DNA from: Lophium mytilinum
Lineage: Eukaryota
Assembly (NCBI GenBank): GCA_010093605.1
Contig: MU004201.1
Location: forward strand, 439,106-503,105
DNA length: 64,000 bases
Direction: 5' to 3'
Both the position numbers and the translations under genes were made by a program. Under the pieces are notes generated by a model. That model saw nothing but the letters and a program-made list of their open reading frames with translations. It did not search any database and had not been told where the DNA came from. Below, piece after piece: positions 16,560 to 42,129 of the stretch; position 1 is the stretch's first letter; each line of letters starts with the position of its first letter.

Positions 16560-18125
16560 GGGTTGCCGCTAATAATAACGTGGAGAAGGGTAGCTTCTCG
16601 AGCTTCTTAATGCCTCGCTTAGCGATTATCTTGGATGAGATATGGTCGACGTATTAGATTTATCCGCATTATTAATAAAGATTTGCAGGTCGAATATGGG
16701 TGGAGTAGGCTTAAAAGAGGCCTTGGGCCGGGCGTCGTGGTGGGTGTTTTAGCGTAAACCTTAAGCGTGCAGATGGGATGGTCACCGTTAACGTATTGGA
16801 AGTTGTCCGCATTCTCAACAAAGGTTCGCAGGCCGAAGGCGGGTGGTGTAGGCTTGAAAGAAGCCTTGTGACTGTGAGCGGGCATTGTGATGGGTGTGTT
16901 GAGGGGCTTGCCGCCAATAATAACGTGGAGAAGGACTAGCTTCTTAAATATCTTAATACTTTACTTGACGATTATCTTGTATAAAACACGGTATTGGAAG
17001 TTATCCGCATTTTCAACAAAGGATCGCAGGTCGATGTTGGGTGGTATAGGCTCGAGAAAGGCCTTGCTCGAAAGAGGCCTTGGGCCTGCGAGCGAGCGTT
17101 GTAATAGATGTATTGGCGCAAACCTTAATCGTGCAGAGGGATAGTTACGCTTGTTGCTTGGCAGGTCGAAGTCGGGAAGTATAGGTTTGAAAGAGGCCTT
17201 AGGCCTGCGAGCGGGCATTGTGATGGGGGTGTTGGCGCAAACCTTAATTGTGCAGAGGGATGGTTACGCTTATTGCATGGCAGGTCGAAGTCGGGTAGTA
17301 TAGGTTCGAAAGAGGCCTTAGGCCTGCGAGCGGGCATCGTGATAAGGGTGTTGGCGTAAACCTTAGGCGTGCAGAGGGATTATAACAATTGTCGCATTGC
17401 GGTTAAGATCGGGTAGTATAGGTTTAAAAGAGGCCTTGGGCCTGCGAGCGGGCATTGTGATGAGGGTGTTGGCGTAAACCTCAGGCGTGCAGAGGGATTA
17501 TGACAATTGTCGCATCGCGGTCGAGATCGAGTGGTATGGGCTCGAAAGAGGCCTTGACCGCGAGAGGGCATCGTACTGGGTATTGGCGTAAACCTTAGGC
17601 GTGCAGAGGGATTATAACAATTGTCGCATCGCGGTCGAGATCGGGTGGTGTAGGCTCGAAAGAGGCCTTGACCGCGAGAGGGCATTGTACTAGGTGGTCG
17701 GCGCAAACCTTAAGCGTGCAGAGGGGATGGTTGCAGTTGTAGTCGAAGTCGGGTGGTATTGGCTCGAACGAGGCCTTGACCGCGAGAGGGCATCATACTG
17801 GGTGGTCGGCGCAAACCTTAAGCGTGCAGAGGGGATGGTTGCAGTTGTAGTCGAGGTTGGGTGGTATTGGCTCGAACGAGGCCTTGACCGCGAGAGGGCA
17901 TCATACTGGGTGGTCGGCGCAAACCTTAAGCGTGCAGAGGGGATGGTTGCAGTTGTAGTCGAGGTTGGGTGGTATTGGCTCGAACGAGGCCTTGACCGCG
18001 AGAGGGCATTATACTGGGTGGTCGGCGCAAACCTCAAGCTTGCAGAGGGCTTAGTCATAGTTATGGTCTACGAGCAGGTATTATGGTGGGTGTATCGACA
18101 TAAACCTCAAGCGTGCACAGAAATT
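16560..18125 (+). repeat. Tandem array of 108-119 bp units (about 11 copies), with longer composite units at its left end
   Basis: Core GGCGYAAACCTYAAGCGTGCAGAGG at 16751, 17115, 17234, 17353, 17471, 17585, 17700, 17808, 17916, 18024 and ~18098. Confidence 0.95.
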
Positions 18126-18459
18126 TACCTAGGCCGCCAATTTTGAGGTGGGTTGGTTCGTTTATGTGGCGGATGTCCGAAGGCGCACGCCTACGGTGGT
18201 CTATTAGCACCAAAAGTGCAACAATCCGATCTTAAAAATAGAAGTAATAGACCACCGTACACCCTACAGGCGCGTGGATTTTTAGCCGGCGGGAGCGGGG
18301 AATTTAGGCACGTGGGCGCCTAAATTCCTGCCCGGGGTTTCCAATACTCAACGAGTCAGTCCCACCTAAGTGTGTACTACGACATGAGCGCTAGAGGCAT
18401 GCCGTCGCTTGCGCAGGCAGACACTAGATGCTTCACGCCATGACGGCCTCGATGCGACA

Positions 18460-18750
18460 ACTGTGACTATCTCCGCCGCACGCTTAAGGGTTACGCCGAT
18501 AAACCCACACTACGATGCCCGCTCGCAGGCCCAAGCCTTCTTTCAAGCCTATACCACTTAACTTCGACCTGCGAACCTAAGACCTTCTCCATATTGTTAT
18601 TATTAAGACACCCGCTTGGAGGCCCAAGGCCTCCCTTAAGCCTACACCACCCGACTCCGACCTATGAACCTTTAGTGAGAACGCAAACAGCTTCACTACG
18701 TTGACCCTATCTTATACGAGATAACCGCTGAGCAGGGTATTGAGAAAATA
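18460..18750 (-). repeat. Inverted arm of the 16560-18125 array
   Basis: The reverse complement aligns to array units, and its outer end matches ~16605-16660. Confidence 0.85.
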
Positions 18751-19454
18751 GCGGTATAGAGGCAGCAGCAGGACATGGTGCCCGTCCTTTCTTCCCGTGC
18801 TGCTTTTAATTGTTTAGATGCGCCGTTGCTAACGTGCTTCGAGAGTGCAGGCCCTCTAAATACTACCCCTCTTTGTCCTTAACTACCCCTTTATTCTTTA
18901 TACCTCGATACACGTCCTCCGTGCCTCCATGCACCAGTCGACCCTCACGCCTTACCTCTCTAATCAGCGTAGTATCGCACAAGGGCAGGTGTCTTGAATC
19001 GCCGTTGGGGAGAGGTCCGTCCTCCGCTCCATCTCCGCAAAACCTCGCGGCGGCTTTATACCTGCGCCTAGCCTCAGCCAACCCTTCACTACGCTCTTTA
19101 CCGAGTCCTGCGATGCGACATCTGGAACCATCGGCTCTGTACGCTTAAGGTTTACGCCAACACACCCACTATAATGCCAGCTTGCAGGCCTAAGGCCTCT
19201 TTCGAGCCTATACCACCCATGGCGGGAAAGGGGGAGGGATGGGGTATTGCTAGTCTCGAGTCGAGCGCTGGCGGCATGCCGTCCCTCGGAAGCAGCGGGA
19301 AGGCTGAATACTTTTGGGGCGGAACGCTGGGCAGCTGGGCAAGAATAGCAGAGCTAGACGTGGGAGGCGACGGGGCCAACTAGCCCGTGCCGAGCCTAGT
19401 TAAAACATTACGCCGCGCTAAACAAGGCGGATCTGGAGTTCATCACGCCAGCCC

Positions 19455-20105
19455 GTTTCTGTTTCGGCGGTCGCCCTCCACTACGCTTTGCGGTTTACTT
19501 CACTGGCGTGAGACCTGAAGCGTGCAGAGAGAGTGTCCTAAGCGAAGGCTGTGAAGCCGATAGCGTTCAAAGAGAGTATCCTAAGTAAAGGCCTGCCAGC
19601 TTAAGCCGAGTTTAAGAAGAGCTAAACGTAAAAGCCCTTGTCTTCCCTATTCTCTTCATTTCTCTCTGCTTCAGCTGCGTTGTTGACTTGTGTGTTGGTT
19701 TAGAGCTGGGCATTTTTATATCTTGCCAGTCTTCTAGCAGATTCTATTCTTTGAGAAAGTCCTGGATGCCTTTTAGCATGCGTTGTGGGTGTTGCTATAC
19801 TCTTGATTGGATTACCTAGCCGGTGTTAAAGAAGCGGACGATACACCGGGCCATGGCACGTCCAGGTCGCTCTTCCTCTGTATACGCCGGTGACGACGCT
19901 ATGGAAGCCTGTTTATGTTTCGGTGGTCGCCCTTAACCACGGTTCACGATTTGGCTTACTGGTGTGAAACCTAAAGCGTTCAGGAAGGGTCTCTAAGCGA
20001 AGACCTGTTTCTATTTTAATGGTCGCCCTTAGTCACGCTTTGCGGTCTGGTTCGCTGGTGTGAAACCTGAAGCGTTCTGGGAAGGGCGTCCTAAGTAAAG
20101 GCCTA
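19455..20105 (+). repeat. Three ~95-bp related units (19455-19550, 19915-20005, 20005-20105) sharing the array core motif
   Basis: GGTCGCCCT..CTGG[CT]GTGA[AG]ACCT[AG]AAGCGT..CTAAG is repeated. Confidence 0.8.
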
Positions 20106-21103
20106 CTAACCTTTGCCTTTGGTGCAGGCGCAACGCCCGGTATTTCGCCACCACTGTCACTTTCCGAGGAGCCCGACAGCTGCACTCCCGCTGGTCCACT
20201 GGATTTACGGTTCCTATTCGTCGAGATTGGAGCAACTCTTTTAGCCCGGGTATTCGACTTCGGGGTGCTGCTTTATGGTTGTTGGGAAGCTGCCACGGAT
20301 ACAATCTTGATCTTCCGACCCGCCATTCCACGCCTTAAGCGCTGGCGGCGCGCCGTCGCTTGCGCAGGCGAACGAAAGCCTCCGATGGCAACGCGGTATC
20401 ACACTGAGGGTATCACCCCCAGGGCATGGGGAGGGGGTTAGCAGGTAGCTGCACGATTACGGTACCGTCGTCCAAATCATGGTGTTTCAAAGTGCATCGT
20501 GTTAAAAGTCTATCTTGTCAAACGTTCATCTCGTTAAAGTTCATTTCGTTGAAAATTTAATTTTATTAAACTACCACTTGAAACAAAATCCGCGAACGTT
20601 AAGAGTATCTCCGAGGAGCACGATAGCCCCATCGTGCGGATACAGCACCACTTCCTCTCCCCATCCCCTCCCTTGCCCAGCTGTGCCTGTCCCGCCGCCG
20701 CCCAGCGTCTTGTCCCGAAGGCATCCAGCCCGCCGCCGCTAATCGTGAACAACGGCATGCCCTTACCGTCGCTCAAGTTGAACCCGACAGGAATCCCATA
20801 CATAGAATACTGCTTGTGGTCCGCAAACATTAATCCACGATTCTCGTCGAGGATTGCCGATTCTCAGCGATTGGGGGCTAAATCTACTAATGTTAAGCAT
20901 TCAACGAAGCCTTTAGTAGCAGTGTTGATGCGTGGCAGTGTTAACATGTAGCAGTTAATGTTTGGAAATGTAAAGCTGGAGGGTGGGCGTTGAGCTGCTT
21001 TAGTGCGATGAAGGACTGTAAATGCTAGTTTCGCGACTTACTTGCACTCTTTCTACTTAACCTCCTCGGGCTCATTAAATATGATATTGATACCGAGTTC
21101 CAC

Positions 21104-21750
21104 TATGCTCGCCTGGATGCTATTAACGCTTTTAACGCGGATTCCACGGCCATGAAACGTCTCACTTCTTCCCTTGCTAAGTTGCCCGATCTGGAGCGAC
21201 TGATTTCCTTACTATGCTTGGGCCGTCTTGCATTAATCCTCTTTTTGCATTAGGATTCCCTGCCTCATCTTTGCAAGCAACTCCGTTCGCATCCTACGTC
21301 ACCGCTATCTTGTCCCCGTCTCTACGCCCAAGAATTCTCTCCAAAGCAACGCCAACATGCCCGAAGATGGAAGCTAGCCTGCGCGGCACTCGTCCATCTG
21401 CATCCGCAGCAACTTAGAGCAGCGCGGAGAGCACTTCCCCATATTGTTGTTTCAAAAGCGCTTATCTACGTCAACCCATGGCTAATAAACCCAACAATCG
21501 CGGCGGCCGCCAGCGGCGCGAGCCGATGCAAAGCTAAAGCCTTTTTGAAAGTCGTGGAAAAGACTTCGAACAAATTGAGTACACTATAACCCTTTCGAAC
21601 TCTTTTGCGGAAGGGGATGGCGTTACTAGCCGACTTATATCCTGAATGCCCAAGCTGACCGGCACACTTAGAAAGTGGAAGTCTGTCTTTAACCTAGAGA
21701 AGGCAAAGTCGGACGGCGTTCTAGTTCCGGAACCCGGCGTCGAACGTGAT
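21104..21750 (+). pseudogene. MSH6: MSH6 internal fragments (core/lever region), split by a ~310-bp unrelated insert at ~21209-21519
   Basis: ARLDAINAFNADSTAMKRLTSSLAKLPDLERLIS, then RCKAKAFLKVVE..FEQIEYTITLSNSFAEGDGVTSRLIS*MPKL..WKSVFNLEKAKSDGVLVPEPGVERD. Matches fungal MSH6 as I recall it. Confidence 0.85.
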
Positions 21751-22030
21751 ACCGCGAAGCTCCCTCATTAACTCGGATGCGCATGCGCTTCTCGCGGTCT
21801 TGGGACGCATCTTGAATTCTCTCGCAAGGCTGCGATAATGGATGGTTGAGAACCCGACGCAGCCAACGCGAGTAGTGACGTTGTGGAGGACGGCCTAGAC
21901 AACAGCGACACTATTGCAGGATAAGGTGCTGCAGCCGAGCTCGTCGACGATAAAAAGAGAGCGCGGAGTCGCTTCGGAGAGGATCTTTTGGATCTCTGCG
22001 AGTTCGATAAAGGAGGTTAACTAGGCAGTA
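21742..22030 (-). pseudogene. MSH6: MSH6 ATPase-domain fragment, inverted
   Basis: TSFIELAEIQKILSEATPRSLFIVDELGCSTLSCNSVAVV*AVLHNV..VGCVGFSTIHYRSLAREF corresponds to the MutS STFxVEL..DELGRGT..FATHY region. Confidence 0.92.
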
Positions 22031-22952
22031 CACCACCAACCTAAATAGCAGTTATACGTTAATATTGACGCTTGCATGTAAGGTTGTTAGTGCACCACGC
22101 TATTGAGGATGCGTCGCTAGTCTAAGAATTGAAGCGTGTTCCGCACGTCGGGTTCAATTCTAAGATAAAGATGCGTCTTAATTCCATCTCCTTCATCTCG
22201 CGTTTCTTCCTAGTGACTTGCTTTGCAGCACTTAGGAGTCTCTTAAGCTTATTCCCATAGCATAATGCAATTTGGGCGAGCTAAGTAACAGCAGAACGAT
22301 ACTTATATGGCTCACCGTTGCCAATCCTATTCCTATTTATACTAGCTACGGTCTGCTACCATATCTAAAACATCCCTAACTGCCCTCGCTCCTCGCTCCT
22401 CGTCACTCACTTCCGCTGGCATCCGCTAGCCTCCTCTTGTACCTTAAGCTGCCCTTATTTCTTATCGCCCACTTCCGCTGGCAGTTTGCCCTACTCCTCC
22501 CGCACCTCAATCTCTCTATAAGTCCCCTTCTTAATACCCCACAGGCTATAATATACCTTCTAGGTTACTGCGCAGTCTATAATAGTATTTCTTAGAAAGT
22601 GCAGCCATTTATGTACTCTAATCGCTCCTTATACAGGCTGTAACATAGTATATTCCCTGTACTCTTAACTCTCCATGTGCTATAAAGTGTCTTAGATTGC
22701 TATATACAATATAGTGTACATATAGTAGGGCTATAGTAGCCCTATATTAGTAGCAGGGCTGTGCTAGCCCCCTTATAGGCGTTTATTAGGGTTGTAATAG
22801 TTATGGGGGTAGAGCCCCCCCATTGGTGGGGGCAGACCCACCCTATTAGTGGGGGCGAATCTACCCCACCCTATAAAAGATTTTCTCTACAACCTCTGCA
22901 TGAAAATTCTGCGCTCTCACCTTCTACTATACATTGTTTACTTCTTGCTACC

Positions 22953-24330
22953 ATGGCTGAAGAAGATGATTCTCCTTGGCTCACTGCGTTTAAGCTTAGG
23001 GCCCTTAACTTCCTAAATACCCTATGTCTACGGTGCAAGACACAGCTCTAAGATCACTATAAGCACTTTAAAAATTGTCGTAAGATGCTAGATAGCGACG
23101 TGGTAACGCCTATAAAGTGCCGGTACTGCTACACATTAACTAAGGATGCTATATCACACTGGGACATCTGCGCCGTTTGGATAAGGCAAGTTATTTCTGC
23201 CACGAAAGATGACTGGACTAAGGCTATCCAGCAGAAGGTAGACTAGAAGCATCTCCTTCCCCTTAAAAACGCGGAATTGGAACATTGGAACGGTAAATTA
23301 CTACAGCTTATTCCATGGGAATAGTCTGCAGATGGCGAGATTATGGATTTGGCTCTTTATAATCTCTCTAACACCACCTAGGTCTACAAAGTAGGCACAC
23401 ACAACGTTTATGTAGGCAAAACCCACCATATCTAGAATAGCTTTTGTTATGCCGACGCACCTGTCTTCTATGCTATTAACATTAACATTGGGGAGGAGTA
23501 TTATGTTAGCATCCCAGCAGTTATTAAATCTATCCAACATCCTAACTTCTCCCGCTACTACTAAGGAATTAATATTACTCCTAAAGGAACCTTTGTGGAT
23601 CTCCATATTGGTTAGTATTACCTTTACTACTTACTTTAGATTAGGAACTAATGTCTACGCTTAGATTATAGGCAAGATGCGTACAGTGTTGGGCTCTAGG
23701 GATGTATTAAACTCTAGATTCTCTACCCTGCCACCTTCAGCAACCTTAAAGCCTTCTACGCTGTTAGCCTAGATGAGACCAACAAGCTACTTGCCCTTTG
23801 CAATGGCTAACTCAGCAACGGCGCCTATAAAGTAACTTTGCCATCTGAAGGAATCTATATACTACCTGGCTGTATCTATACAACCTACACTATTGCCTCG
23901 GGTATTATCTTTGGCAGCAACTGGACCTCTGCTGAGAGTTTAGATGTATGTGCTTTAGTCCTTATCCATAAAATTAAGAATGGTACTGCAGAGCTAGGTG
24001 CGCTATCCACCTTCAGTGCAAGCCTGGTAGGGAGCATCAAGCATAGAGGCAATTGGAAAGACACTCTTAGTAGGTTCTGTCCGCAACCTCCAGGCTAAGG
24101 GGGAAGAAGTTGAACGCAAAAGGAGGCTAGCAGTAACTCTAGGGCTAAAGGTTAGGTACAGGAGGCACTTTAAGCCCTAGGTGCTTTACTAAAGCAGGAT
24201 TAGACTTGCTCTAAGTGCAAGAAGCTATATACAGCGCACCTTGGGTTTACACTTAGGGTAAGTAGCTTTTATATAATCTAACACCTGCTCTATTTACTAA
24301 CTTATACGGTTAGGGCACGGAAAAGAAATA
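22953..24330 (+). pseudogene. JmjC/cupin 2OG-Fe(II) domain protein with N- and C-terminal CxxC motifs, RIP-inactivated
   Basis: TPKGTFVDLHI|D (HxD formed across the GT-AG intron 23611-23664), KL*ILYP, and GIYILPGCIYTTYT (distal His CAT->TAT). One frame with only TAA/TAG stops. Confidence 0.8.
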
Positions 24331-25784
24331 CACTATCTTTCTACCCTAGGGGTGGATGGATGAGCGATTTCATATAAATAGGGAGAGTAGTAGCTTTAAA
24401 TACGGTTTCCATACAGGTGGCTCCTTTTCAACTGCCCTAACTTGGCAGTAGAGCATAGTAAATGCACTATGGAGCAATTATTATCGCGTTTAGTGTAATA
24501 GACTGGAGGTTACTTCGAAAAACCCCGTATATATACACGGGTAACACGCATACATTACTTTGCTTTCGTGTGACCTAACTATTCGCATCTGACAAGTTTG
24601 TCTAATCCAACTGCTTAGTCCGAGGCTAAGAGCAACGCCAGGAGTACCTAATGATGAAAGAGTTATTTACTATACCTGCTCTACCCGAGTCGCCACGTTG
24701 AGCTGTCCATGCGACCGATACTGCCGTCCCGAGTCTAGACTCTATCCTAGAAGCATCGAGAAACACATTGAGAAACTCAACCACCCCTTGAAGGAGGAGA
24801 ACCATCAGTTCCAACGACCTAATCCTGGAGGCGTACGACAGTACTCAGCAGAAGATTGTTTCATGAGCCCTTGACTGTGTTTGACAGAGAGCACGTGCGA
24901 TTGCTCGCGACCGGCAACTCACAGTCGAAGTTAATAATGTTATTGGACTGAAGACTATTTGCACGGAAGCCGCATAGAGGCACCTAAAAAAGGCTTTAGA
25001 CTGGATCTATCTTCTACTTAGACCGCGAGGATCTAAGGTTATAGATGATCCTAGCAGCCTAGCGCTCTAGTGGCTGGATTTGATGTAGATATATAATGGG
25101 TTAAGGATAGTGTTTTAACGTTTGTAAGGTTTAGAAGTCTACAATTCTCGGCTTATACTCTCTTTACAATGCAAGATTACAAAATCTATACGGCGCATGA
25201 TGTATACGTTACTTACGCTTAGTTACATGCTTACTAGAGGTGCTCCTCGATTTGTCTTTTAGAAAGCTCACCCGCCCATAACCCAACATTCTCTTTGACG
25301 ATAGATGGGGGAGAGGAGGGATAATGAGAGTAGAGGGAGGGGAGGGTCCAAAACTTCTCGAACAACTCTTACATGGTAGTCCTGGTTTAAAATAGAAGCA
25401 CCTAAAATGGAATAGGAGGGGGGAGGAGAGTTAGACCCTCCGAGATTACGGTGTTATGGCACCGTGGCTTAAACCGAGCGCGAAAACAATATATGGGGAG
25501 TGGTGGAGTAGAGGAACAACGTAAGAAGGACTGCAAGGCCATGACACTGCATGAAGACGTGATGCTGAACTGCATCCTGCTCGTTACCGATACCCGTTAC
25601 CTTGTTACGATAGCAAACACAACCACCACTATAGCATACTGTTAGGAGATGGAATTTTAACTTATTCTTTCCGTTTTACTTGGCCTACAGCCGAGCTATT
25701 GGGGGCCGGCCATGAATTTTCACGCCCTTCATTAACCTTATCGCCATTCTTATTGCTATCCTTATCGCCGTCCCCATTGCCAGC

Positions 25785-26180
25785 ATGGCCAATCCTTATC
25801 CTCAACTCCCTGTCAACCTCCTGCTTAGTGCTCAACTACGCGCGGCACCTGTTACCTAGAATGTGATCCTCGCTCCAGGTTAATTAATCTAGATCGGGAT
25901 ATTAATGTTGATATTACTATATATCGCGTCGAGGTGACGGCGTATATACAGTGCTGTAAGAGGACCAGGGCTCCGTAGAATATAAAGCAGCGCACCATGT
26001 ATACATGGGACTAGGTGAGGACATTCGGCCTGCAGATAAAGAGTCTACCAATCAGCCAGACTTCTATTACTGCTACCTTTGCGAAACGCTGAAGCGAAAG
26101 CAAGATCTCCTCGTTGTTTCTAAAGGCATAACGATAGCTATGGACCATCTTAAGAGGGTGTACAAGATAGATAAGGAGAC
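25785..26180 (+). mobile_element. hAT transposase 5' remnant (BED-like zinc finger)
   Basis: GEDIRP..FYYCYLCETLKRKQDLLVVSKGITIAMDHLKRVYKIDKETG is typical of the N-terminus of fungal hAT transposases. Confidence 0.7.
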
Positions 26181-32800: not shown

Positions 32801-32899
32801 GCACTAAAAGGGCCTGCTTCCTTAACAAGAAATCCAATCTATCTTAATACCTTATTAACTTATAATCTTAATAGTATCTAATACACCATACTATTAGAA

Positions 32900-33500
32900 A
32901 GTGTAGAAAGGTAATGTCCCAGACACTGAGTCTTGCTAAAGTTCAAGGGGCAAACCCGGAATCTGCTTTCCTACGTCTATTCCCCAACTACCGGTTGCAT
33001 ATAGGTAGAACACAAGGAGTAGCTAGATCTAGAAACTAACTAGGAGCTTCTAAGGCTTTAGGCGCTTTGCACTTGTGGTCGTGAAATGTAATGTAAAATG
33101 GGTGTTGAAATCGCCCCAGTTTAGGGGCAAGCCCGGCATCTCTATTTTTACATCCATTTTCCACCACATCTCACATCCACGAGTTAGAAATACTTAAAAC
33201 TCAAGGAGCCATTACATATAGGAAACAACTAGGAGCTGCTAAGGTTTTAAGCATTTCTAACTTGTAGTTGTAAAATTTGGTGGAAAATAGGCGTTGAAAT
33301 CCCCCCAGTCCAAGGGCAAAACCAGGATCCCGCTCTCTTACGCTTGTTTCTCAATCCACGGTCGCATATGCGTAATAATTTGTAAGCTGCTAGGCCTAGG
33401 TATTATCTTAGACGTTCTTAATATTTAGACAGTTTCAATCGGTGGTTACAAATTGCGAGTGTGAAAGTAAATCTCTAGTTTCAACACCCCTAGAACCTCC
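32900..33500 (+). repeat. Tandem array, period ~177-189 bp, ~3 copies
   Basis: GGGCAA..CC.G.ATC anchors at ~32947, 33124 and 33313; AACTAGGAGCT.CTAAGG is repeated. Confidence 0.75.
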
Positions 33501-33789
33501 CCACAACTTTAAGATACCTTAATATCCCCGCCTTAGAGTCTCGCCACTTAGAGACTCTATTAACACGCTAACAATTTCTTATTCTTAGAATCTTCACATC
33601 CACACTTACAGTAAAGAGGCAGAGTGAACGCAAGCAACTTGCCCCTCTACAAGACCCCTATACGCACAAATCGCTACCATAACACGCCCTCGCCGTATCC
33701 TAACCCTCCGCATCGCTCAGAGTCCATCTACCGCTGCACGCACGGAACCACAACATCGTAATGCATACGAACTAGCTGTAGTCAAGCAT

Positions 33790-34500
33790 ATAGCGCCCAC
33801 GACGGCCTACTTTCTAGCGTTATCGCCTCGCATAACTCGGAGTTTGGATGACTGGTTTGGCGCCGCATACGCGCGATGCGCTGATTGGGTACTTATACAC
33901 TAAGAAGATGCGTAATGGCAATAGTAGAGACTTTAGTACTGGGTTGGGTTTTAAAGGTCCTTTGAGACGGCTGAGAAATCTACCGCTTTCCAGCATTATC
34001 ACCTCGCATAACTCGGAGTTCTAATGCGAGTCTAGCGCCGCACACGCGTAATTCGCTAATGGGGAACTCAAGTACTGAGGAGATGTTTGTTGGAGAATGC
34101 GGAGGTGTCGATGATAAGTTTGGTTTTAAGGGTTCCTCGAGAAGGCTTAAAATCTACGGCTTTCCAGCATTATCGCCTTACATGACTTGGAGTTCTGTAG
34201 ACTAGTTTGGCGCCGCACACGCGTGATGTGCTGATAGGAAACTTACATACTAAGAAGATGCGTGATAGAAAATACAGAGGTGTCGATGATAAATTTAGTT
34301 CCGAGGGTTCCTTGAGACGGCTGAGAATCTACCGCTTTCCAGCATTATTGCCTCGCATTCCTTACTTTGGCGCCCCATACGCGTGATATGCTGATGGTAA
34401 CCTCGAGCACTAAGAAGGTGCATGATGGTGATAGTAGACGTATTGATAATAAGTCGGGATTCGGGGTCCTTTAAAACTGCGTGAGAGAGTTAATGGCGAG
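33790..34500 (+). repeat. Tandem array, period ~175 bp, 4 copies
   Basis: TTAT[CT][AG]CCT..CAT..GCGCC.CA.ACGCG anchors at 33820, 33996, 34170 and 34345. Confidence 0.9.
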
Positions 34501-35159
34501 GGCGGGTGTAGGTAGGATAGAACGCGGAGATAGGCTACTTGCGCACGATGTCTCCCCGCCTCTAATAAGCGAGCGGAGAGGTGCTTTAAGTGCGGAGATA
34601 GATGGTGGAGCAAAGGTCGCTAGATTATTGACGTTGGATGGAGCATGGGCGCATGAGGACTCTTCGCGATATTTGCCCCGAGCTTCTAAAGACCGATATT
34701 GAGCTGAAGGGGGTGGAGGTCTTACATCTTGATATCTCGTTTTAAGAAGCCTAGTAATGCTAATCTGAGTGGAACCACCATCGGTTTATGGTAGTGTAAG
34801 GGATGGTCTTCCTTCGTGACATCTTGCTTTGAGAATCCGGCGCGATCCTAATTAAATTGGAATTAACGCCGTTCATGGCAGGGCATGGGGTGGTCTTGCA
34901 TCGTGCTATCTCGCTTTAGGAACCTGGAGTAATACTGTTCTATCTGGGAATACTACTGTTTGGGCGGTGGCGGTCTTGCTGGCGACGGGAATAGTGCGAG
35001 GAGCGTTGAGCTTGACAAGTAAACGCTTACCTGGACAAAGCGAGTCGGCTGTTGAAAGAGCGGAGGCGCACTTACGCATAAGACAGCACTGTCGGCAGGA
35101 ATTCAGGTGCTGAGAGCGACACTGTTCTTGATGTAATACCAAATGCATTTCTATTTAGG

Positions 35160-35335
35160 TCTATCTGGGTTTGCTCCCTGGGAAAGAAGAAGAAGTAAGA
35201 AATAGAAACGCGAGGTATGCTCCCTGGGATGAAGCAGAAAGACAAACGCCAGGTATGCTCCCTGAAAATGCAGACGGAATGAAAAGAGAAACGCTAGGTA
35301 TGCTTCCTGAAAATGCAGATAGAATAAAAAAGGAG
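35160..35335 (+). repeat. Short tandem repeat of ~40-46 bp units
   Basis: AAACGC.AGGTATGCT.CCTG occurs three times. Confidence 0.8.
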
Positions 35336-35417
35336 ATGTGTGGCCGTGGTATAAAATAGGTCCTTCTTTAACACATCCAAGCCACCCAATAAGTCCCCCT
35401 CGAGTGCACACTAATGT

Positions 35418-36430
35418 TCACGGTACTACGGTTAAGTTGCACGTCCTACCGTTTAATTGAGACTGTATCTTTGACACTCGGTCTGTTAATATAACGATGA
35501 ACGCGTCCTTCATCCTGTCTGCTCGACGATTTGTCCACTCCACGATGGACAACCCTCGCTCGGCAGGGCGATATTGTAGATTTGAAAAGAACCTGGCATG
35601 CGCCGTAGCTATACGAGTCGGATAGACTACAACCGGAGCCCAGCGCAGCTTGAAAGTCGCTAAAGTAGAATGGCCGCCAATAAGGCTTGCCAGATACTTT
35701 ACACTGGTAGACGCTTTCCAGATCTTCTTGTAGGCGTGAGACAAGTTAATATACTCCGCCGGGGGGATACTATTGAATGTGGGGTTGGTACAGTAAAAGT
35801 TAAGCGAATGTTTAGTTAATACGGCCAAAAGATTAATTTCCATGGCAAGGTGCTTTAATCTCTGTAGTCCGTGGCAAAGAAACATCGTTAATCGCCTAAA
35901 GGTATAGACACGGTCTTTGTCCTTTCTTCTAGCATGAACAGGCTGTTGGAATGGAGCTGCAACCGTAATATCTAGACGTCTTAGCTGGTTCCTAAGCGGG
36001 GGTATACGGCGCAACTTGCGTACAACTGCGTGGACGTGTGCATGAGGTTCAACGCCCGGCATTATATCCGCAACTTGGAGATGGAGAACTATATCCCCAT
36101 TATCTACTAGTTCCGGGGCCGCTGTTGTTATACCGGCCAGGGCATCACCGATGATCTCAAGGGCTGCGGTTAACTTGCAACATTTAACTTCGGTCCGCAG
36201 TGGGGTCCCCAAGACTTCTTGCCATATAAGGCCCCGAATCTCGGGCGGGAATAATTCGGTAAATTCCAACACGGTCCGAACTAGGTAATGCCAAAGTTAA
36301 TACTATATTGCAAGTAGCGGGGCTTTACCAGCCTTAAAACGGAACACTTACCTAGACGCTTAATCCCCCTTCGTGGTTCCCTGGTGTTTGACTCTGGTGG
36401 ATGTGCGCTGCCGAGTTCGAGGCTAGACAT
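35418..36430 (-). CDS. Apparently intact two-exon gene, 313 aa, F-box-like motif protein
   Basis: ATG at 36430. Intron 36281-36351 (GTAAGT..TTAAC..TAG) splices in frame to the 284-aa ORF. FTELFPPEIRGLIWQEVL is an F-box-like LPxEIRxxIW motif. Confidence 0.7.
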
Positions 36431-37249
36431 GATTGGTGGAAGGTAGAGAGGCAGACTAATACTTCGTTGTGGTCTTTCGGCTGCGCAATATGGAATTCCG
36501 GATTCAGATGGCGGATCCGAGTTAGTGAGTGGATTCGATATATTTGCAGCTCAGCGTTCGATATACAAACTTCCTAGGGTTTGGTGCTGGTCTGCCTTAG
36601 TACGATGGAGTAATAATGTCTCCCTAGCTGCGGACTCTTTATAGGTTGAGGACTGATGTTTAAGAAAAGACGTAGCTAGCAGACAGGACGGAAGATATAT
36701 ACTATGTTAAATTAAAGGTTTTGCATCTAAGCTCTAGTTTAGCGGCGAGACAGGCAGCAGATTATCCGCACGAATCCGATTACCTGCCATGTATCGTTGC
36801 ACAGCAGTTAACATTTACCGCGTATAGCTCTTACACCTGTCATGTATTACTGCACAGCAGTCTTTCCAGCTCCCAGGTCTTTATCGCAGCCGTGTCTAGT
36901 TATCGTTACTCTACAACTTGGAGTCTGGTACGCTAATTTAGCGCGACCAGAGGGTGAGGCTGGTTGCAGGGTGCTAATAAAGGCTATAGATGTGCAATAT
37001 TCTTGGCGTAGCTGCCCGAGCTCGATAGGCAAGCACCCGGTGGAAGTGAGCTCTCACGTTGGCGGGGGCTGCACGCTAATCTTCCTAAAGGGCCTGCTTC
37101 TCTCGTGGATTTATTATACGGGCAGCACTTTGCGGAACTCGGTGGTTAGCCCCTTAGGCTCTAGTAAAATGATTTCCCGCTTAAGGTTACAATTGTGGCC
37201 ATTGTAGGTGTAGATGAGAGCAGAAAGATTGCTGAGGTTTAAACCGATG

Positions 37250-37950
37250 CTAGTACAAGCTTGTGCGCCTGATCGCAAAGCTTAAGCCTTGCAGCCTTGC
37301 AGCCTTGCAGGGCTTGCACGGCATGCCGAGCGAATGTCTCTTTTTGAAGTATTGCAGCACGCTACGGAGGGTGGAAGTCCGATCCGGGATACGATGAGAC
37401 GCGCAACAGCGGGGGAGCGGGTGAGATTCTAGGAGAGATGAGGTCTGCAACGAAAAGCGATGCAGAGCCTAAGGCTGCAGTTCGCCGAGGTGTGGTGGCA
37501 TAGGCTGTGCCTCCGCAAGTTTAGAGCCGTGACACACCTGCAGACTTCGGCCTCTACCTAGACGCTCTTAGCTTTTCACACCCAATAAGTATAATTCTTC
37601 CCAAGGTTGGTCCCTGGCGGACTTGGCCTAAAGCAATTCAAGCTGCACGCAATATTGGCCTAGACTTATGTAACTATTCGTCATCGTCGAGGCATTACAG
37701 ATGTGGCGGGCGCAGGCATCGGGGTATTGAGCTTGAAGTACCAGCGGGGAAAGCTAGACCCATAGCTTAATGGGTGTGGGCGTTGTGACAGCTCGGGATG
37801 CAGGAGAAGAGAATGTATTGTATTGATGTTCTTGTGAGGAAGCTATCCGGGCGACGCGGAGGAAAAGTATGCACGCAAGCTGCAGGGTAAGCGGCTGAAG
37901 CAGTGCGGCCAAGGATGGTGTATGGCGCTGTGATGGTGGCAATGAGGCGT
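37250..37950 (-). pseudogene. Decayed gene fragment, possibly DUF3505 (telomere-linked RecQ-associated) type
   Basis: Weak motif resemblance only (YTILGR..ACVHT; PDAC..YISLGQYC; QPW..GVKS*ER). Confidence 0.25.
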
Positions 37951-39499
37951 AATTCGTTATGCGATATCTAGATAAGTTTAGCCAATCAGCCGCTTAGATC
38001 CTAGCGCCGAAATGTCTTAGTAGGTTAGAGGGGCATGCCAGTTTGCATAAGAAAGTAGTGCTTAGATTAGAATATTGAAAGCGAGACTATTATGGGGATT
38101 TTCGAACATAAATTCATAAGACAAATAACCTTTCCGAAATAGAGCTCTCGCCAACCAACGTGTCTATATTACCGCACTGAGGATGTTAAAGGCCCCTTTA
38201 GTTTATTTTATTTTGAATTCATGTTCGAAATTGCCCATAATACTCTCGCTTTCGACCATCTAATTAATACTCTTGTTGCCATTCTCGATGTACAGGATGG
38301 CGAAATCCGACTCTACGCCTCTACGTGGTGCCACCTAGGAACCTTGCTCTACTCGCAGAAGGATTTCTTGAGCAGATTGGTCCTTATATTTAGGCTTGTC
38401 ACCCCCTAAGATTGGAGCCCTCCACGACAACATTACGGCTCGACCGCAGCTTGACTGTCCCCTCGAATTTGACTCGATTTAATGCATTAACGACATGCAC
38501 CACCTATCCTCTATAAAAGAGTTAGGGCTGTACCTGCAAAGCGCTTTCTACACTACAATCGACACATTAATAACGCCTTGGATGAGAACAAATTAATAAC
38601 ATATCCATAAGCCGGCTCACATATTATAACGTCTGATCCGCGTCGCCACCCACATCCATTACTATATTGGGGGTTGCGGTTAGGGCTTTAGGGCATGCTA
38701 AATTTCTGGTTCAACCCGTAGGGCATGCAGTATTTAGGAAGGATAAGTGTCTTCTTTGGTGGATCTACGTAATGGGTATGGACTAATATACTTAGTTCCG
38801 TTGCATGTGCCTATTTGCCGTCTCTAGTAAACTCTGGCCTCTCCTCATGTAAAATAGTTGATAAGAATTAATTCCTGAATACTCCTTCTGCTCCCGCTTC
38901 TTGCGTTCCGTATTCTCATTCTATTCGCGCTTCTTGCCTTCGGCATTCTCTTTCTGCTCGCTCTTCACGCGATTGGTTTCTGTTGAGCAAGGTCAAGATA
39001 TTAGACCGGCTATCGTTTAAATCTTTACTGTTATAGACGTCGTGCTGGCCCTTATAAATACTGGGGCGTATGAGACTTTAAAGGGGTGTAAACCAATGTA
39101 TTGAGTGAAATAGTGCTAGAGGATAGGCCTCCAGCACGGTGTAACTAGGTAGTTCTTGTTTACTGCTTCCTTCCTTTACCTACCGCTGTCTGCCGTGCTT
39201 GATATTCACACTATCTAAGTTTCTGATCCAATCTACAAGCCTTGCCATTGGCATGCCAATCTTGAGTCTAGATTATGCGGGCTAGCTCCCGTTTACACTT
39301 TCTAAGGCCGTGTAGGCCGAGTATTGGGCCGTTAGCTAATCTGAATTTCGCCCTGGGACTACATTGTCTCGCAATTCCCTGGCTCTACCTTTGCTGTATC
39401 CATGGCGAGGGCGGCCACCAGCGATCCATCTGCACTCGCGCAAGTTGTTAAGGGGCTAGATACGATGCCTCCCCCTCCAGCTGCTGCCACGCACACGCT

Positions 39500-39728
39500 C
39501 CCTTATCGTGTTGTGCTAGAGGGGTGCTATAGCCGTGGTTAATGAGGCTGGCGATTCCGCCGGTGGCGTAGGATCTACCGTCTTACTTATATAGGCTAAG
39601 CGTGACCGTACCAATCTAGTTTAAGCAGTTCAATCTAAAAATCTAATTAATTAAGCTTTATTCTATATATATCAACCCAATCAAGCTGCTACCTAGTTAA
39701 GCCGGCCGCCGGTTTAGTAACCACGCTG
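39500..39728 (-). mobile_element. Left end of a second member of the 1139-1671 hAT family
   Basis: GCCGGCCGCCGGTTTAGTAACCACGCTG ends at 39728, and its reverse complement aligns with 1139-~1385. Confidence 0.88.
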
Positions 39729-39882
39729 CCGTACGGTAAAGAGGACCTCGAAAGAATGCGCCTAATGACAGCATCCGGATTCCGCTTCTTATTCAACTTC
39801 TTTAACTCCCGTCTCCCCAGCTTCCACTTTCCACCTTACGTCTCTAATTCGCCCATGCAATTCGCCCATTATTACAGCAATC

Positions 39883-40147
39883 ACGGTCCGGGGCATTAAA
39901 GGCAACGAGATGTCAACCCCAAAACCTCCAAGCTCAAGAGAGCCGCCTCTGGCTCGCAGTCTGCCAATAACCAGAAGCCCGTCTTGGATTTCTCCCGGAA
40001 GAAGACGGATACTAGCTCCAGCTCTGCTCCGGCCTCTTTACTACTGGAACCCACTTCTATAAAGAAGGAGACACCATTAATTGGTAGCAGGAAGGACCCC
40101 TCAGTCCGCAGGACAGCCGCGGCGGCCTTGACACTGGCCCCGAGCAC
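39883..40147 (+). pseudogene. MSH6: Probable MSH6 N-terminal fragment with degenerate PCNA-binding PIP box
   Basis: ..STPK..SKLKRAASGSQSANNQKPVLDFSRKK..LTLAPS resembles the fungal MSH6 N-terminus (NQKSILGFFQK..LTPxPSSD). Low-complexity region, so weaker than the other fragments. Confidence 0.55.
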
Positions 40148-40259
40148 AACGCGACGTATGCCAGATGGCAGACTGGCGGTAGAAGGCTATGGGGGTAGAC
40201 TGCTCCACGTTATCCTCGTTTAAAACACTTTATCTTGATATTTTAGGGGAGCTAGCCGT

Positions 40260-40362
40260 TCCCCTCTGCATGCTTGAGGTTTGCGCCGACACACCCACCA
40301 CGATGCCCGCTTGTAGGCTATAACTGTAACCATCCTCTCTGCACGCTTAAGGGTTGCGTCGA
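40260..40362 (-). repeat. Two dispersed inverted partial units of the 108-119 bp array family
   Basis: CTCTGCATGCTTGAGGTTTGCGCC and CTCTGCACGCTTAAGGGTTGCGTC. Confidence 0.85.
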
Positions 40363-42129
40363 TGCATCCATCCCAGAACACGACGCTGGTGTGCGGAGAT
40401 GGGCGGTTAAAGTGGGACCAGTCGGTTAAGTCCTGAAGACGTAACGATAGCTGATTTTAGTTAGCGTAGGCTGCGCCAGGCCAGATAGAAGGTAATAGAG
40501 AAGCTAATATTTAGCAGTAAGAGTAAACTCTACAAGAAATCCGAGGGCGTCCCACCTAGAACCGCAGTATAAAGGCTTAGCCCGCTAACAGGCTTATAGA
40601 ACGCGTCTTATGCCCTGGACCTAATTATTCCTATCGTCTAATGCCAATCGAGTAGTGAGACTGTTTGCGCTACGACGGCCGCCGGTGCATTGGAGGTCGC
40701 CCCTGCAACGAACGCGGCGGTGGCGCGGATAGAGAAGAGCGCGCGGATAGCGACATCGCTGGCGAGGATGAGGAAGCATAGCAAGATGCTAATAACACAA
40801 GTTCAAGAGAAGTATTAGAACGGACGATGCTGATCCATATATCTGCTTCTAATAATACAAGGTCTAACAGCTATAGAAGAGGCGTGGCAGCAACGCATAA
40901 ACTATTAAGAAAATAAGGAACCTGAGAAGGGAACTAGAGAATGCGCGACATCTTAACTCAAGTAAGGCGTAGGAAAGGCATGAGCTAGGAAGTGTTGGCG
41001 ATTTTCAAATCCATAAGAGGAAAGTGGGTATCAATGAAAATGACGAAGACTTTATCTTGCTGAATGTTAGCGTGATTCCGGATAAAGTATAATGATGGTC
41101 TTACATGATTCTAATAGCGTGTTGCTAAAACATGTGCTGCGTTAATTTATAATGCTTCGCTAAGAAATTATATCCGCAGAATGCCATATTAAATGGGGTG
41201 TACTTAGGGGCTTTTAACAGCTGTTTAGTACTGTTTGAGGTGGCTTATATAGGCGTGAACATCGTGCCTATAATGTTAAATCCCTAAGATAATAAGAGCT
41301 CTTCCGTGACTAGTATAGTATTGAAGTAACAAGAAGAAAATCTGGGTTTACCGCTTTCGGCTTCGGTGCAACGCCTCAAGAAGTGGATGGGAATGCTGCC
41401 ACGCACACGAGCGCTGACGGCGTGCCGTTGCTCGCGCAGCCAGACGAAGCCCTCCAAACGGGAACGCGGTATTACACCCAAGGCATGAAGAGGGGGGTGG
41501 TGGGTTGGAAAGCTGCCAGGCTCCTTATAAGCGGCGGTGAGGGCGTGCCGTCGCTCGCGTGCTGGAGATGCTGGGAGGGACAGGCACGGCTGGACGAGGG
41601 CGGCGATGGGCATAAGGGCGGCGATGGGGGTCGGGGGTAGCATGTTAAGCATTGCTGCACACTAAATTAGACCTGTGGATGCTGCTCGTTGTGGAACTTT
41701 TACTATCGCGTGTGTGATGACTACTCATTCTCTTCTTAGCGGCATTGCTGCGCTGGGTTGTGTGCGAAAAGCAGTGGCATTAGAAGGCTAGAGATGAGGG
41801 TTTGGATCGGGCTGTGAGATGTCCGTTGACGGCGTTAAAGGGATTGTAGGAGGAGTGAGTGGCAGTAGAGACGATTATAGTTAAGCATGGTTGAGGAGAT
41901 CGACGGCGTTTATAACAACGAGGTCATCAGGACAGTGTAGTGGGTGGTACCTGTATGCTATTTTCTTTTTGGAAGAAACCGAGAGATTGTAAGTTATATA
42001 ACTAGAGCCCAACTCTATTCCGAAACCGACAATTGTGAATACTTACCCAAAGCTAATCTCTATCCGCTCCTGCCCGTTTTATCCGCTCTACATCGCAGTC
42101 TAAATTGTTCTAAAGTTAGGTACCTTTAC

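Follow-up and report, generated by a model that had tools for sequence, protein, structure and literature searches.

Repeat-rich fungal DNA is known to contain duplicated (non-processed) pseudogene fragments, which are dead, partial copies of genes that remain intact and functional at another place in the genome. The MSH6 fragments that we analyzed in a 64-kb stretch of Lophium mytilinum DNA (the window) are alike in this respect, in their stops, frameshifts and lost catalytic residues, and in being set among old transposon relics and satellites. However, the pieces in the window are non-collinear, with one inverted and another 18 kb away, and the two blocks in which they lie have a set of short repeats to themselves. 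A second related process is transduplication by hAT elements in Dothideomycetes, reported for histone H3 in Pseudocercospora fijiensis and Pyrenophora tritici-repentis and for a DNA methyltransferase gene in Zymoseptoria tritici (PMC6710886; PMC3538342). As here, these are cases from the same fungal class in which the copy of a housekeeping gene lies dead in repeat DNA and the original is intact. In contrast, the captured genes reported there sit inside a definable hAT element and have been amplified tens to hundreds of times, many copies bearing RIP mutations, whereas in the window neither element ends nor a hAT domain were found, no further copy of at least 80% identity occurs among the matches listed, and the pieces carry no one-sided RIP signature in 40 listed differences.

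Gene-fragment capture by Pack-MULEs and Helitrons in plants and fungi is the subject of two further reports (PMC4289320, PMC6446971). The window resembles such captures in holding small, directly joined fragments of one gene in both orientations. Pack-MULEs have long terminal inverted repeats and 9-11-bp duplications, neither of which was found in the flanks of the window fragments. Helitrons are recognized by 5'-TC/3'-CTRR ends, a conserved hairpin and RepHel; the window showed neither such ends with the hairpin nor RepHel, and its patchwork of fragments is single-copy. In foldback-type elements, the inverted ends are built from tandem subrepeats, and in the window a (+) array at 16.6-18.1 kb likewise faces its own inverted units at 18.44-18.76, 19.07-19.22 and 40.26-40.37 kb, with a hairpin-rich spacer between array and inverted units. 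However, the arms differ greatly in length (1.5 kb vs 0.1-0.3 kb), and defined ends, signs of mobility or further copies were not found.

The region is gene-poor and repeat-rich. MSH6 sequences were searched for by tblastn, for which 11 full-length MSH6 proteins of fungi served as queries, and with an HMM made from 41 MSH6 proteins, which was run on the 3341 stop-to-stop ORFs of the window. Together, these searches gave six matches with E ≤ 8e-6, at 21101-21229(+), 21562-21642(+), 21646-21753(+), 22017-21901(-), 21894-21742(-) and 39912-40151(+), and tblastn added segments at 21518-21559(+) and 39886-39942(+). The resulting pieces at 21101-21229(+), 21518-21753(+), 21742-22026(-) and 39806-40170(+) cover approximately residues 668-784, 1114 back to 1020, and 1-95 of the 1207-residue MSH6, and these three parts of the protein account for about 307 of 1207 codons. 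The original prediction of MSH6 pieces in two blocks is therefore real in substance, although the pieces are smaller and have other limits; the block proposed to hold core and ATPase at 18.4-22.0 kb contains MSH6 at 21.10-22.03 kb, whereas neither the 11 proteins nor the HMM gave an MSH6 signal in 18.4-21.0 kb. Over the three parts, 211 of 326 aligned residues (65%) are identical to Msh6 of Lophium mytilinum (P0006).

The piece at 21101-21229(+) belongs to MutS domain III ('KLPDLERLIS', about residues 668-709; HMM E 4e-13) and shares 29 of 43 residues with P0006. It is followed by a 288-nt spacer (21230-21517, +), seen as a gap between tblastn segments at residues ~703 and ~707; a second copy was not found in the window, and the spacer may be an intron kept from the parent or else inserted sequence. 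The core then continues at 21518-21753(+) (about residues 707-784; tblastn 47/62 identical; HMM E 6e-10 and 8e-6) and carries a frameshift at 21559/21565 as well as one in-frame stop. The inverted piece at 21742-22026(-) runs from residue ~1114 back to ~1020 of ATPase domain V (tblastn 57/92 identical, E 4e-25), has one in-frame stop, and its Walker B motif reads 'DELGCSTL' in place of 'DELGRGTS'. When 103 ORFs were compared with Pfam, MutS_III (E 1.5e-4) and MutS_V (E 9.2e-6) were detected, both below curated cut-offs. At 21744/21745 the core and ATPase pieces meet head-to-head on opposite strands, the protein alignments overlapping by 12 nt.

The piece at 39806-40170(+) comprises 77 nt of parental 5' flank and residues 1 to ~95 (HMM E 2e-7). 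Alignment of 39883-40147 to MSH6, on which the original prediction had staked its case, was confirmed by tblastn (54/94 and 13/19 residues identical to P0006, joint E 3e-27) and at the DNA level, where 39806-40077 aligns with the contig of the parent gene. The start codon is ACG, and a 1-nt deletion near 39927, after which the parent contig has one extra C, shifts the frame. A homologue of the PIP box expected at this N-terminus is present in a degenerate form, QKPVLDFS as compared to QKSILGFF. In all, two in-frame stops, two frameshifts, the change from ATG to ACG and that from DELGRGTS to DELGCSTL disable the copy, and the MSH6 fragments are without function.

The parent MSH6 is intact, spliced and transcribed, and lies on a different contig of the same organism, with DNA about 80% identical to the pieces. 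In each of two DNA sets, all three pieces are collinear on one contig, of 21.8 kb (X1) or 46.8 kb (X2). Compared with the parent contig, 21560-21744 shows 36 differences in 185 nt, the ATPase piece, joined as 21744->22026 on opposite strands, 44 in 229 nt, and 39806-40077 36 differences plus 14 gap letters in 272. The same differences recur in an RNA-like contig (X3, 3838 nt) in which the distances between the parts are smaller by 63 and 300 nt, which identifies it as a spliced transcript of the parent. The single long ORF of the window (292 residues) matches, at 100% identity, a protein that Lophium mytilinum encodes on a 614-kb contig, whereas P0006 is encoded on a 2.85-Mb contig, which makes the MSH6 copy in the window ectopic. 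Divergence from the parent is similar for the three pieces (about 80-82% DNA identity), which fits one event. Among 40 listed differences, 16 transitions with T/A in the window stand against 16 with C/G, and 5 of 16 are in TpA context, so that a one-sided RIP signature was not found in this set.

Besides MSH6, the two blocks have three low-copy repeat families in common. A tandem array of 108-119-nt units occupies 16557-18109(+) (TRF periods 119/108/216, self-blastn, and 12 nhmmer hits of the unit profile at 16683-18109) and opens with two ~340-nt higher-order copies at 16557-16900 and 16901-17066. Between it and its inverted copies, the spacer at 18190-18335 forms two strong hairpin palindromes, with a predicted folding energy of -30.9 kcal/mol vs -18.3 on average for shuffled sequence (z -4.19; equalled by 0 of 200 shuffles). 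Inverted units follow at 18439-18760(-) (nhmmer 18439-18662; blastn; inverted pairs I1, I5 and I6, 73-80% complementary), which pair with 16604-16897 as an imperfect inverted repeat of ~300 nt, and at 19071-19219(-) (nhmmer E 4.1e-16; blastn 82-85% to array units). Two partial inverted units lie at 40260-40370(-), about 90 nt past the N-terminal MSH6 piece (blastn 82-94%; nhmmer E 4.3e-7). In the whole 64 kb, the nhmmer profile matched at 16683-18109(+), 18439-18662(-), 19071-19219(-) and 40275-40318(-), the last being widened to 40260-40370 by blastn, and once more at 52236 with an E of 8.6. The array core is common to both blocks, as had been proposed; the copy claimed at 19505, however, amounts to an 18-nt core-like stretch (19514-19531 vs 40352-40335, 17/18 identical, E 0.07) within three ~85-nt direct repeats at 19469-19549, 19904-19989 and 19999-20102 (+; self-blastn 78%).

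The second family, element E, occurs at 20338-20446(+) and 41405-41505(+), as found by alignment and blastn and, for the second copy, pattern search. This shared element, described as about 90 bp and here given ~100 nt, had been noted correctly: 20338-20413 and 41410-41486 are 76.6% identical over 77 nt, and the alignment extends to 20446 and 41505. Its score of 59.9 bits exceeds the maximum of 26.9 bits obtained from 40 Markov shuffles of the window. Each copy opens with a 29-nt motif, P, for which the window holds four matches with at most three mismatches as compared to 0 expected in 100 shuffles. A further P copy directly precedes the inverted array copies at 18388-18416(+) (two mismatches; blastn 18379-18422), weak copies lie after an inverted array unit at 19262-19288 (blastn 85% over 27 nt, E 0.002-0.003) and at 41534-41559(+) (88% over 26 nt, E 6e-4), and 4 of 6 P copies are no more than 2 kb away from MSH6 sequence. 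The copy at 3431-3459(-) (two mismatches; blastn 86-87% over 32-36 nt) is outside both blocks, so that the statement that these families occur nowhere else in the window was nearly right. The palindrome of P, which had been noted in the element, is intact only in the first E copy, and its predicted fold is not more stable than those of shuffled sequence (z -0.74). A 37-nt piece, X, lies at 20660-20696(+) and, inverted, at 41574-41610(-) (block-against-block blastn 84% over 37 nt, E 3.9e-6).

These three families, together with pieces of one gene at similar divergence, argue that the blocks share a history, and the occurrence of array units, E, P and X in both suggests that the blocks once were one composite locus or arose by local duplication of that locus. 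We consider it rather probable that the pieces derive from a single old duplicate of the organism's own MSH6 gene, which was ectopic, arose at the DNA level and was then broken up locally, and that they represent an ordinary rearranged pseudogene and not a new gene-capturing mobile element.

Against this reading, small, sharply bounded pieces from widely separated regions of the gene and in mixed orientation form a patchwork that transposon capture or template switching also makes. Old capture by a non-autonomous Pack-MULE-, hAT-, foldback- or Helitron-like DNA element, in which three MSH6 pieces would have been joined through template switching, inserted here, later separated by about 18 kb of inserted DNA and eroded past recognition, is possible though unlikely. 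Non-adjacent gene parts meeting at a direct junction, short repeat modules common to both blocks, and the inverted array copies (16.6-18.1 kb, + and 40.26-40.37 kb, -) bracketing all MSH6 pieces would suit it, and there are published reports of hAT capture and amplification of housekeeping genes in other Dothideomycetes (PMC6710886) and of Helitron gene capture in fungi (PMC4289320). However, the E copy, P and X at 41.4-41.6 kb fall beyond the bracketed span, and the palindrome is unconserved. Comparison of block and fragment edges gave no terminal inverted repeats, all inverted repeats within 16.0-22.6 kb belong to array units, and no usable target-site duplication was found. A transposase, helicase (RepHel included) or recombinase domain was absent from 287 scanned ORFs, as was any mobile-element protein domain from the blocks in the comparison of 103 ORFs with Pfam. 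The acquisition and shuffling of host exons that had been predicted is likewise not supported, since MSH6 is the one recognizable host gene and no fungal homologue was found for the ORFs adjoining its pieces. Among the matches listed in the DNA contig sets, the sole relative with at least 80% identity was the intact parent; this search covered 21501-41500, the array and block 1 upstream of 21.5 kb lying outside, and sister copies of an element this old would be expected below its threshold. The proposal that an element was later split or duplicated fares unevenly, as the shared history of the blocks fits a split, whereas their complementary, non-redundant MSH6 parts argue against a transposed element that is present twice.

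We regard as improbable a local tandem duplication of a pre-rearranged composite (N-terminus, repeats, core, inverted ATPase) followed by reciprocal deletions, which would have left repeats, core and ATPase in copy 1 and the N-terminus and repeats in copy 2. It would explain why an inverted array unit precedes E(+) in both blocks in the same orientation and at comparable spacing (19219->20338, 1119 nt; 40370->41405, about 1035 nt), and the N-terminal piece, downstream of the core and oriented like it, is where a second copy would start. However, the ~1.1 kb between array unit and E cannot be aligned across the blocks although the units and E are 77-82% identical, X is inverted between them, and downstream of 40.2 kb the only further MSH6 traces are two HMM hits at 62.9-63.6 kb that fall short of significance (E 0.6 and 0.95).

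A processed, retro-copied pseudogene that was fragmented later is very improbable. The three aligned pieces do lack any parent intron, and an LTR-retrotransposon pol fragment at 39503-39727(+) ends 80 nt upstream of the N-terminal piece; this fragment is 83.5% and 85.7% identical by blastn to 1140-1384, which overlaps an RT_RNaseH_2 ORF (920-1216, -; Pfam E 5.8e-10), and at 39602-39639 it matches extra multi-copy contigs. However, alignment of the N-terminal piece with the genomic parent includes 77 nt upstream of the start codon, the core is interrupted by the 288-nt non-coding spacer, and a poly(A) tract and a collinear cDNA-like body are absent. That the window is the ancestral MSH6 locus, decayed in place after the functional copy moved away, is scarcely credible for gene-poor repeat DNA when the functional gene sits on the 2.85-Mb contig.

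Under the favored reading of a locally broken-up duplicate, MSH6 DNA would have landed in or beside a satellite-bearing, repeat-rich region. An inversion-type event may then have set codon ~783 head-to-head with codon ~1114, deletions would have taken some three quarters of the coding sequence, the 5' piece would have become separated from the core and ATPase pieces by about 17.8 kb of other DNA, and array units, E, P and X were probably multiplied locally through inverted and tandem duplication, presumably without transposition. Weighing against this reading, the order of core, inverted ATPase and then N-terminus downstream, oriented as the core, cannot be reached from a collinear duplicate by insertions alone, which implies at least one further rearrangement or a tandem duplication. 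P0006 and the protein P0005 are identical at 308 of 326 residues aligned to the pieces, and where they differ the pieces match P0006 only at eight sites and P0005 only at four, which points to an origin that is old and inside this lineage. A recent report gives a bimodal age distribution, with old and younger bursts, for the transposable element copies of L. mytilinum (PMC12910237, 2026), which is consistent with old relics at about 20% divergence.

Homology to the mismatch repair protein MSH6 was located in the window by tblastn with MSH6 proteins and by an HMM of 41 matched proteins of at least 1180 aa run on 3341 window ORFs. The two methods agreed on amino acids ~668-709 at 21101-21229 (+), ~707-784 at 21518-21753 (+), ~1114 back to ~1023 at 21742-22017 (-), where the DNA homology extends to 22026, and 1 to ~95 at 39883-40170 (+). 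The first two stretches form the core piece and are separated by a 288-nt non-coding spacer at codons ~703/707, which could be a putative intron of the parent gene. Pfam analysis of 103 ORFs of at least 40 aa in 17.7-22.6 and 39.3-42.0 kb revealed MutS_III at 21029-21250 (+) with an E-value of 1.5e-4 and MutS_V at 21898-22020 (-) with an E-value of 9.2e-6, both below the curated cut-off. When the first fragment was used as a query, 107 proteins were obtained with E ≤ 0.01, nearly all of them MSH6 of Dothideomycetes and Lecanoromycetes, and the top full-length matches were the proteins of Mytilinidion resinicola (P0005) and of Lophium mytilinum itself (P0006). The original prediction of MSH6 core and ATPase sequence between 18.4 and 22.0 kb was correct as to the pieces, but they amount to ~1 kb rather than 3.6 kb, and neither tblastn nor the HMM gave an MSH6 signal in 18.4-21.0 kb. 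In the N-terminal alignment TVRGIKGNEMSTPKPP pairs with MVRGVEGNEMSTPKPP, and past a frameshift the match to P0006 continues with 54 identities in 94 residues (joint E 3e-27), so that the proposed alignment of 39883-40147 to MSH6 is a specific N-terminal match. A homologue of the N-terminal PIP box is there as well, in degenerate form (QKPVLDFS versus QKSILGFF). Disabling changes comprise two in-frame stops, two frameshifts and a start codon that reads ACG, and Walker B of the ATPase piece is mutated from DELGRGTS to DELGCSTL; with these changes, the MSH6 pieces are dead. Marginal HMM matches at 62889-63170 (E 0.95) and 63465-63590 (E 0.6), both on the (+) strand, were non-significant and non-collinear; 62735-63359 is open on both strands and the matches there are probably noise.

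Two DNA contig sets (X1 and X2, possibly from the source sample and so not independent) and an RNA-like contig set (X3) were compared with 21501-41500 at a likeness of at least 80%. One contig in each DNA set, record 2 of X1 (21.8 kb) and record 8 of X2 (46.8 kb), carries all three MSH6 parts in gene order, and differs from the window at 36 positions over 185 nt, 44 over 229 nt and 36 over 272 nt (the last with 14 gap letters besides), corresponding to ~80% DNA identity. Also, the 77 nt upstream of the ATG in the N-terminal piece align to the genomic parent. Compared with the window, the parent contig has its ATPase part on the other strand, which indicates that the parent is collinear and the window copy inverted. 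Record 13 of X3 (3838 nt) has the same differences from the window as the parent contig, yet its distances fall short of those in the parent DNA, by 63 nt from ATPase to core and by 300 nt from core to N-terminus. With spacings of 715 and 1963 nt it agrees exactly with the distances in the coding sequence, and the record is thus the spliced parent transcript. These contigs show that the organism has an intact, expressed working MSH6 gene, of which the window pieces are a duplicate. As P0006 is found on a 2.85-Mb contig and a 292-aa ORF of the window was matched on a 614-kb contig, the duplicate is ectopic. Apart from the parent and the contigs of the window itself, no contig covering the MSH6 pieces was found at 80% identity or above among the pieces shown for X1 and X2 (266 more exist); the copy search is limited to this identity and to 21501-41500. 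X3 covers the MSH6 pieces solely through the parent transcript, and the lack of X3 cover in 16 of 30 bins is no indication of silence.

The core piece (+) and the ATPase piece (-) are joined head-to-head, with protein alignments that overlap by 12 nt (21742-21753), and comparison with the parent contigs placed the joint at 21744/21745. An inversion spanning codons ~784-1114 would leave such a joint at one of its breakpoints, but a template switch is an equally possible origin. Past 22026, where the inverted ATPase segment ends, lies unrelated single-copy DNA. Insertions alone do not account for the order of core, inverted ATPase and N-terminus downstream, which needs more. Parent-gene homology and disabling mutations, two marks of a duplicated pseudogene, are both present, and the locus is an ordinary, though unusually scrambled, member of that class. 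Taken together, the MSH6 pieces are probably an ectopic duplicate that was rearranged with no active carrier involved.

The repeats of the two blocks were studied by profile, pattern and self-comparison searches. A tandem array of 108-119-nt units occupies 16557-18053 (+), as found by TRF and self-blastn. In the whole window, the nhmmer profile of its unit matched only 16683-18109 (+), 18439-18662 (-), 19071-19219 (-) and 40275-40318 (-), the last of which blastn extends to 40260-40370. As had been predicted, then, the array core is present in both blocks, with profile matches confined to 16683-19219 and 40275-40318. Around the array lies an imperfect inverted repeat of ~300 nt, formed by 16604-16897 and 18452-18746. 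Two near-perfect hairpins with stems of ~15 and ~11 bp are located at 18190-18335, in the spacer that separates the array from its inverted copies; the DNA fold of this stretch has a z-score of -4.19, none of 200 shuffles folds as well, and the stretch could represent a MITE or a small foldback centre.

The ~100-nt element E was likewise confirmed as common to both blocks: 20338-20413 and 41410-41486 are 76.6% identical over 77 nt, and the match scores 59.9 bits, whereas 40 shuffles reached 26.9 bits at most. Its 29-nt head, P, gave four matches with up to three mismatches in a pattern search of the window, where none was expected, and weak copies were seen by blastn at 19262-19288 and 41534-41559. 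The repeat families had been thought to occur nowhere else in the window; this held for the array, but one P copy lies outside the blocks at 3431-3459. Similarly, the palindrome ascribed to the shared element is present in the copy at 20339, but of the four pattern matches it is intact in this one only. Fold z-scores of the four P copies (-0.74, +1.67, +1.50 and +0.66) did not beat those of shuffles in any case, and this folding gave no sign of a functional hairpin in element E. A 37-nt piece, X, occurs at 20660-20696 and 41574-41610 (blastn), inverted relative to each other, and the ~1.1 kb between the (-) array copies and the (+) copies of element E could not be aligned between blocks. Element E was also considered as a diverged array unit, but this was discarded, given that the nhmmer unit profile misses it and the likeness by eye is weak. 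There was no sign of a tRNA or SINE origin for the repeats, with no Rfam match at gathering thresholds and no tRNA detected by ARAGORN in the window. A limited literature search found no earlier account of these repeats, nor any of an MSH6 pseudogene in L. mytilinum.

Private repeats occur in both blocks, as do parts of a single gene copy that are similar in age, so the blocks must once have belonged together; the MSH6 parts are complementary between the blocks, which fits one split composite locus rather than two transposed copies of one element. In this respect the predicted shared and split history stands, but its other half, an undescribed element that captures and shuffles host exons, is not supported, with no terminal inverted repeats at the edges compared and no carrier domain or second host gene in the ORFs searched. 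Old transposon-mediated capture of the MSH6 pieces is therefore unlikely, although such a patchwork is also the product expected of it; the remaining probability falls to variants. In a sensitive blastn comparison, the edges at 15.0-16.7, 21.9-23.5, 38.0-39.9 and 40.1-43.5 kb shared only matches of 13-21 nt with E-values of 0.2-0.7, and no element ends could be defined around the blocks. No mobile-element protein domain was detected in the blocks or in the 18-kb spacer: among 103 + 88 + 96 ORFs, Pfam detected no hAT, BED or dimerisation domain and no helicase or Rep domain, and the sole match among the 96 ORFs of 22.6-39.3 kb was zf-C2HC_2 at chance level (E 0.0077). These scans took in the 109 ORFs of at least 85 aa except for four array ORFs at 16.6-17.7 kb. 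DUF3435, the domain of the captain tyrosine recombinase expected at one end of a Starship, was absent from the Pfam matches of the scanned ORFs of this 64-kb window, in which decayed ORFs are hard to detect. The ORF at 20537-20863 (-) was considered as a second captured gene and rejected. A search of PDB sequences gave no match; among 1.84 billion representatives HMMER gave three (E 3e-8 to 2.8e-5), each of them a giant repetitive protein of 1996-6487 aa matched in multiple stretches, and we take these as similarity through repeats or low complexity rather than as evidence of a fungal gene. For the ORF at 20064-20438 (+), none of 833 candidates reached E ≤ 0.01. By these protein searches, the ORFs adjoining the MSH6 pieces hold no second host gene.

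In Pack-MULEs the captured fragments are flanked by long terminal inverted repeats and the element by a 9-11-bp target-site duplication, whereas at the edges compared here there are no such inverted repeats; hAT transduplication involves a hAT transposase or ends with an 8-bp duplication, whereas the scanned ORFs contain no hAT domain; and Helitrons are marked by a RepHel protein or by 5'-TC ... hairpin-CTRR-3' ends, whereas here there is no RepHel domain in the scanned ORFs and the palindrome of element E is not conserved. Capture and amplification of housekeeping genes by transposons is described for Dothideomycetes (PMC6710886), with histone H3 captured by hAT and a DNA methyltransferase in Zymoseptoria, and gene capture by Helitrons is described for fungi (PMC4289320). 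These captures involve defined elements in tens to hundreds of copies, neither of which was seen here (copy search at 80% or above). As capture has already been described in this class, even the predicted reading would be a variation on a known theme.

A narrower version of capture starts from the array and from k-mer depth, which refers to the contigs of 21501-41500 and does not equal copy number. Window-identical contigs have a depth of 80-89 in X1 and 65-87 in X2, as compared to 155.3 and 140.2 for the parent, while other related contigs have 155-169 in X1. A further half-depth contig (83.9 and 66.1) carries relatives of the 29.6 kb region and the P motif. The half-depth contigs could be a hemizygous or accessory compartment. 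The only inverted repeats found in 16.0-22.6 kb are array units, whose (+) and (-) copies bracket the whole span of 16.6-40.4 kb. The blocks might thus be the broken halves of one old non-autonomous foldback or Pack-type element, with inverted ends made of the 108-119-nt array (16.6-18.1 kb, +; 40.26-40.37 kb, -) and three MSH6 pieces captured by template switching, within a compartment of about half k-mer depth that could be hemizygous or like an accessory chromosome, assembled from decayed core genes and satellites. We consider this improbable. All array matches and five of the six P copies lie within ~7 kb, and such clustering of short modules is the pattern of local inverted or tandem duplication, not of dispersal by transposition.

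A reading of the two repeat blocks as LTRs was rejected, because the two direct repeats of an LTR retrotransposon can be aligned at full length and here the alignment of 19.07-20.70 with 40.26-41.61 kb is confined to patches of 37-110 nt, with piece X inverted. A processed pseudogene, expected to be collinear and intron-less and to have a poly(A) tail and a target-site duplication, is very unlikely since the pieces are non-collinear, the core contains the 288-nt non-coding spacer and no poly(A) tract was found with the MSH6 pieces.

Returning to the ectopic duplicate, the pieces are identical to P0006 at 211 of 326 residues (65%), whereas P0006 and P0005 share 308 of these 326. Where P0006 and P0005 differ, the pieces side with P0006 alone eight times and with P0005 alone four times, so the copy originated in this lineage, at roughly the time when the two genera separated; the ~20% DNA divergence likewise places it near that split. 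The 40 differences to the parent listed for the MSH6 pieces (there are 220 rows more) include 32 transitions, eight of each kind, and 23 of the 40 fall at third codon positions. Within this list, window T/A sites stand in TpA in 5 of 16 cases, and no one-sided RIP signature (C-to-T or G-to-A, CpA/TpG) was found. A RIP-inactivated duplicate was rejected on these grounds, transitions being without direction and few sites standing in TpA. By the usual RIP index thresholds, the TpA/ApT composition of the whole window is RIP-like but patchy; the TA/AT ratio is 0.91 in the 20-22 kb bin and at least 1.10 in 26 of the 32 2-kb bins of the window. The differences listed fit long neutral decay of the copy together with synonymous drift of the parent. 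A 2026 comparative paper reports a bimodal age distribution of L. mytilinum transposon copies (PMC12910237), and old relics such as the MSH6 pieces fit that distribution.

The window is gene-poor, with a GC content of 43-53%, 109 ORFs of at least 85 aa and a longest stop-to-stop ORF of 292 aa. This longest ORF, at 35421-36296 (-), matches an L. mytilinum hypothetical protein (313 aa) with 100% identity over 99% of the ORF. It has no Pfam family, and among proteins of 160-511 aa no second homologue reached E ≤ 0.001; its start, FPPEIRGLIW, presumably resembles fungal 2EXR/F-box-like proteins. The only transposon relic near the MSH6 pieces is an LTR-retrotransposon pol fragment at 39503-39727 (+). 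A second pol fragment is an ORF with RT_RNaseH_2 at 920-1216 (-; E 5.8e-10), and the copies are 83-86% identical (39503-39727 and 1140-1384). RNA-like contigs also match 27214-27649, ~30525-30605, 29009-29166, ~39308-39364 and 40579-40696; the six-frame translations of these stretches contain no recognisable protein, and they look like transposon or LTR-type transcripts. In related contigs, one joint (27649 to 30525) skips 2875 nt and another (30605 to 27214) goes back, and the ORF translations of 26929-27276 and 30564-30860 are similar by eye. This suggests that 26929-27649 and 30525-30860 are direct repeats around a multi-copy insert of ~2.9 kb, which could be a relic of LTR type and is matched by a 4855-nt RNA-like contig. 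Within 21501-41500, repetition is highest at 26170-26836 and 28171-30171, with a summed X1 depth of 400-839 as compared to ~80 in unique neighbouring bins, and no Pfam domain was found in them among the ORFs of 22.6-39.3 kb. Tandem arrays unrelated to the 108-119-nt array lie at 9721-10176 (149 nt x 3.1), 32033-32647 (168-169 nt x ~2-4) and 33810-34358 (175 nt x 3.1).

As the working MSH6 gene is intact and expressed, no mutator consequence is expected of the dead copy. The duplicate is a dated marker of modest value, and it shows how old duplicates are broken up in the repeat compartment of this fungus through inversion-type joints, deletion and insertion. If the array, element E and P modules recurrently flank pieces of host genes genome-wide, they would be a new carrier for the transduplication known from Dothideomycetes, and if the half-depth is true of the whole 614-kb scaffold, this scaffold may be an accessory chromosome.
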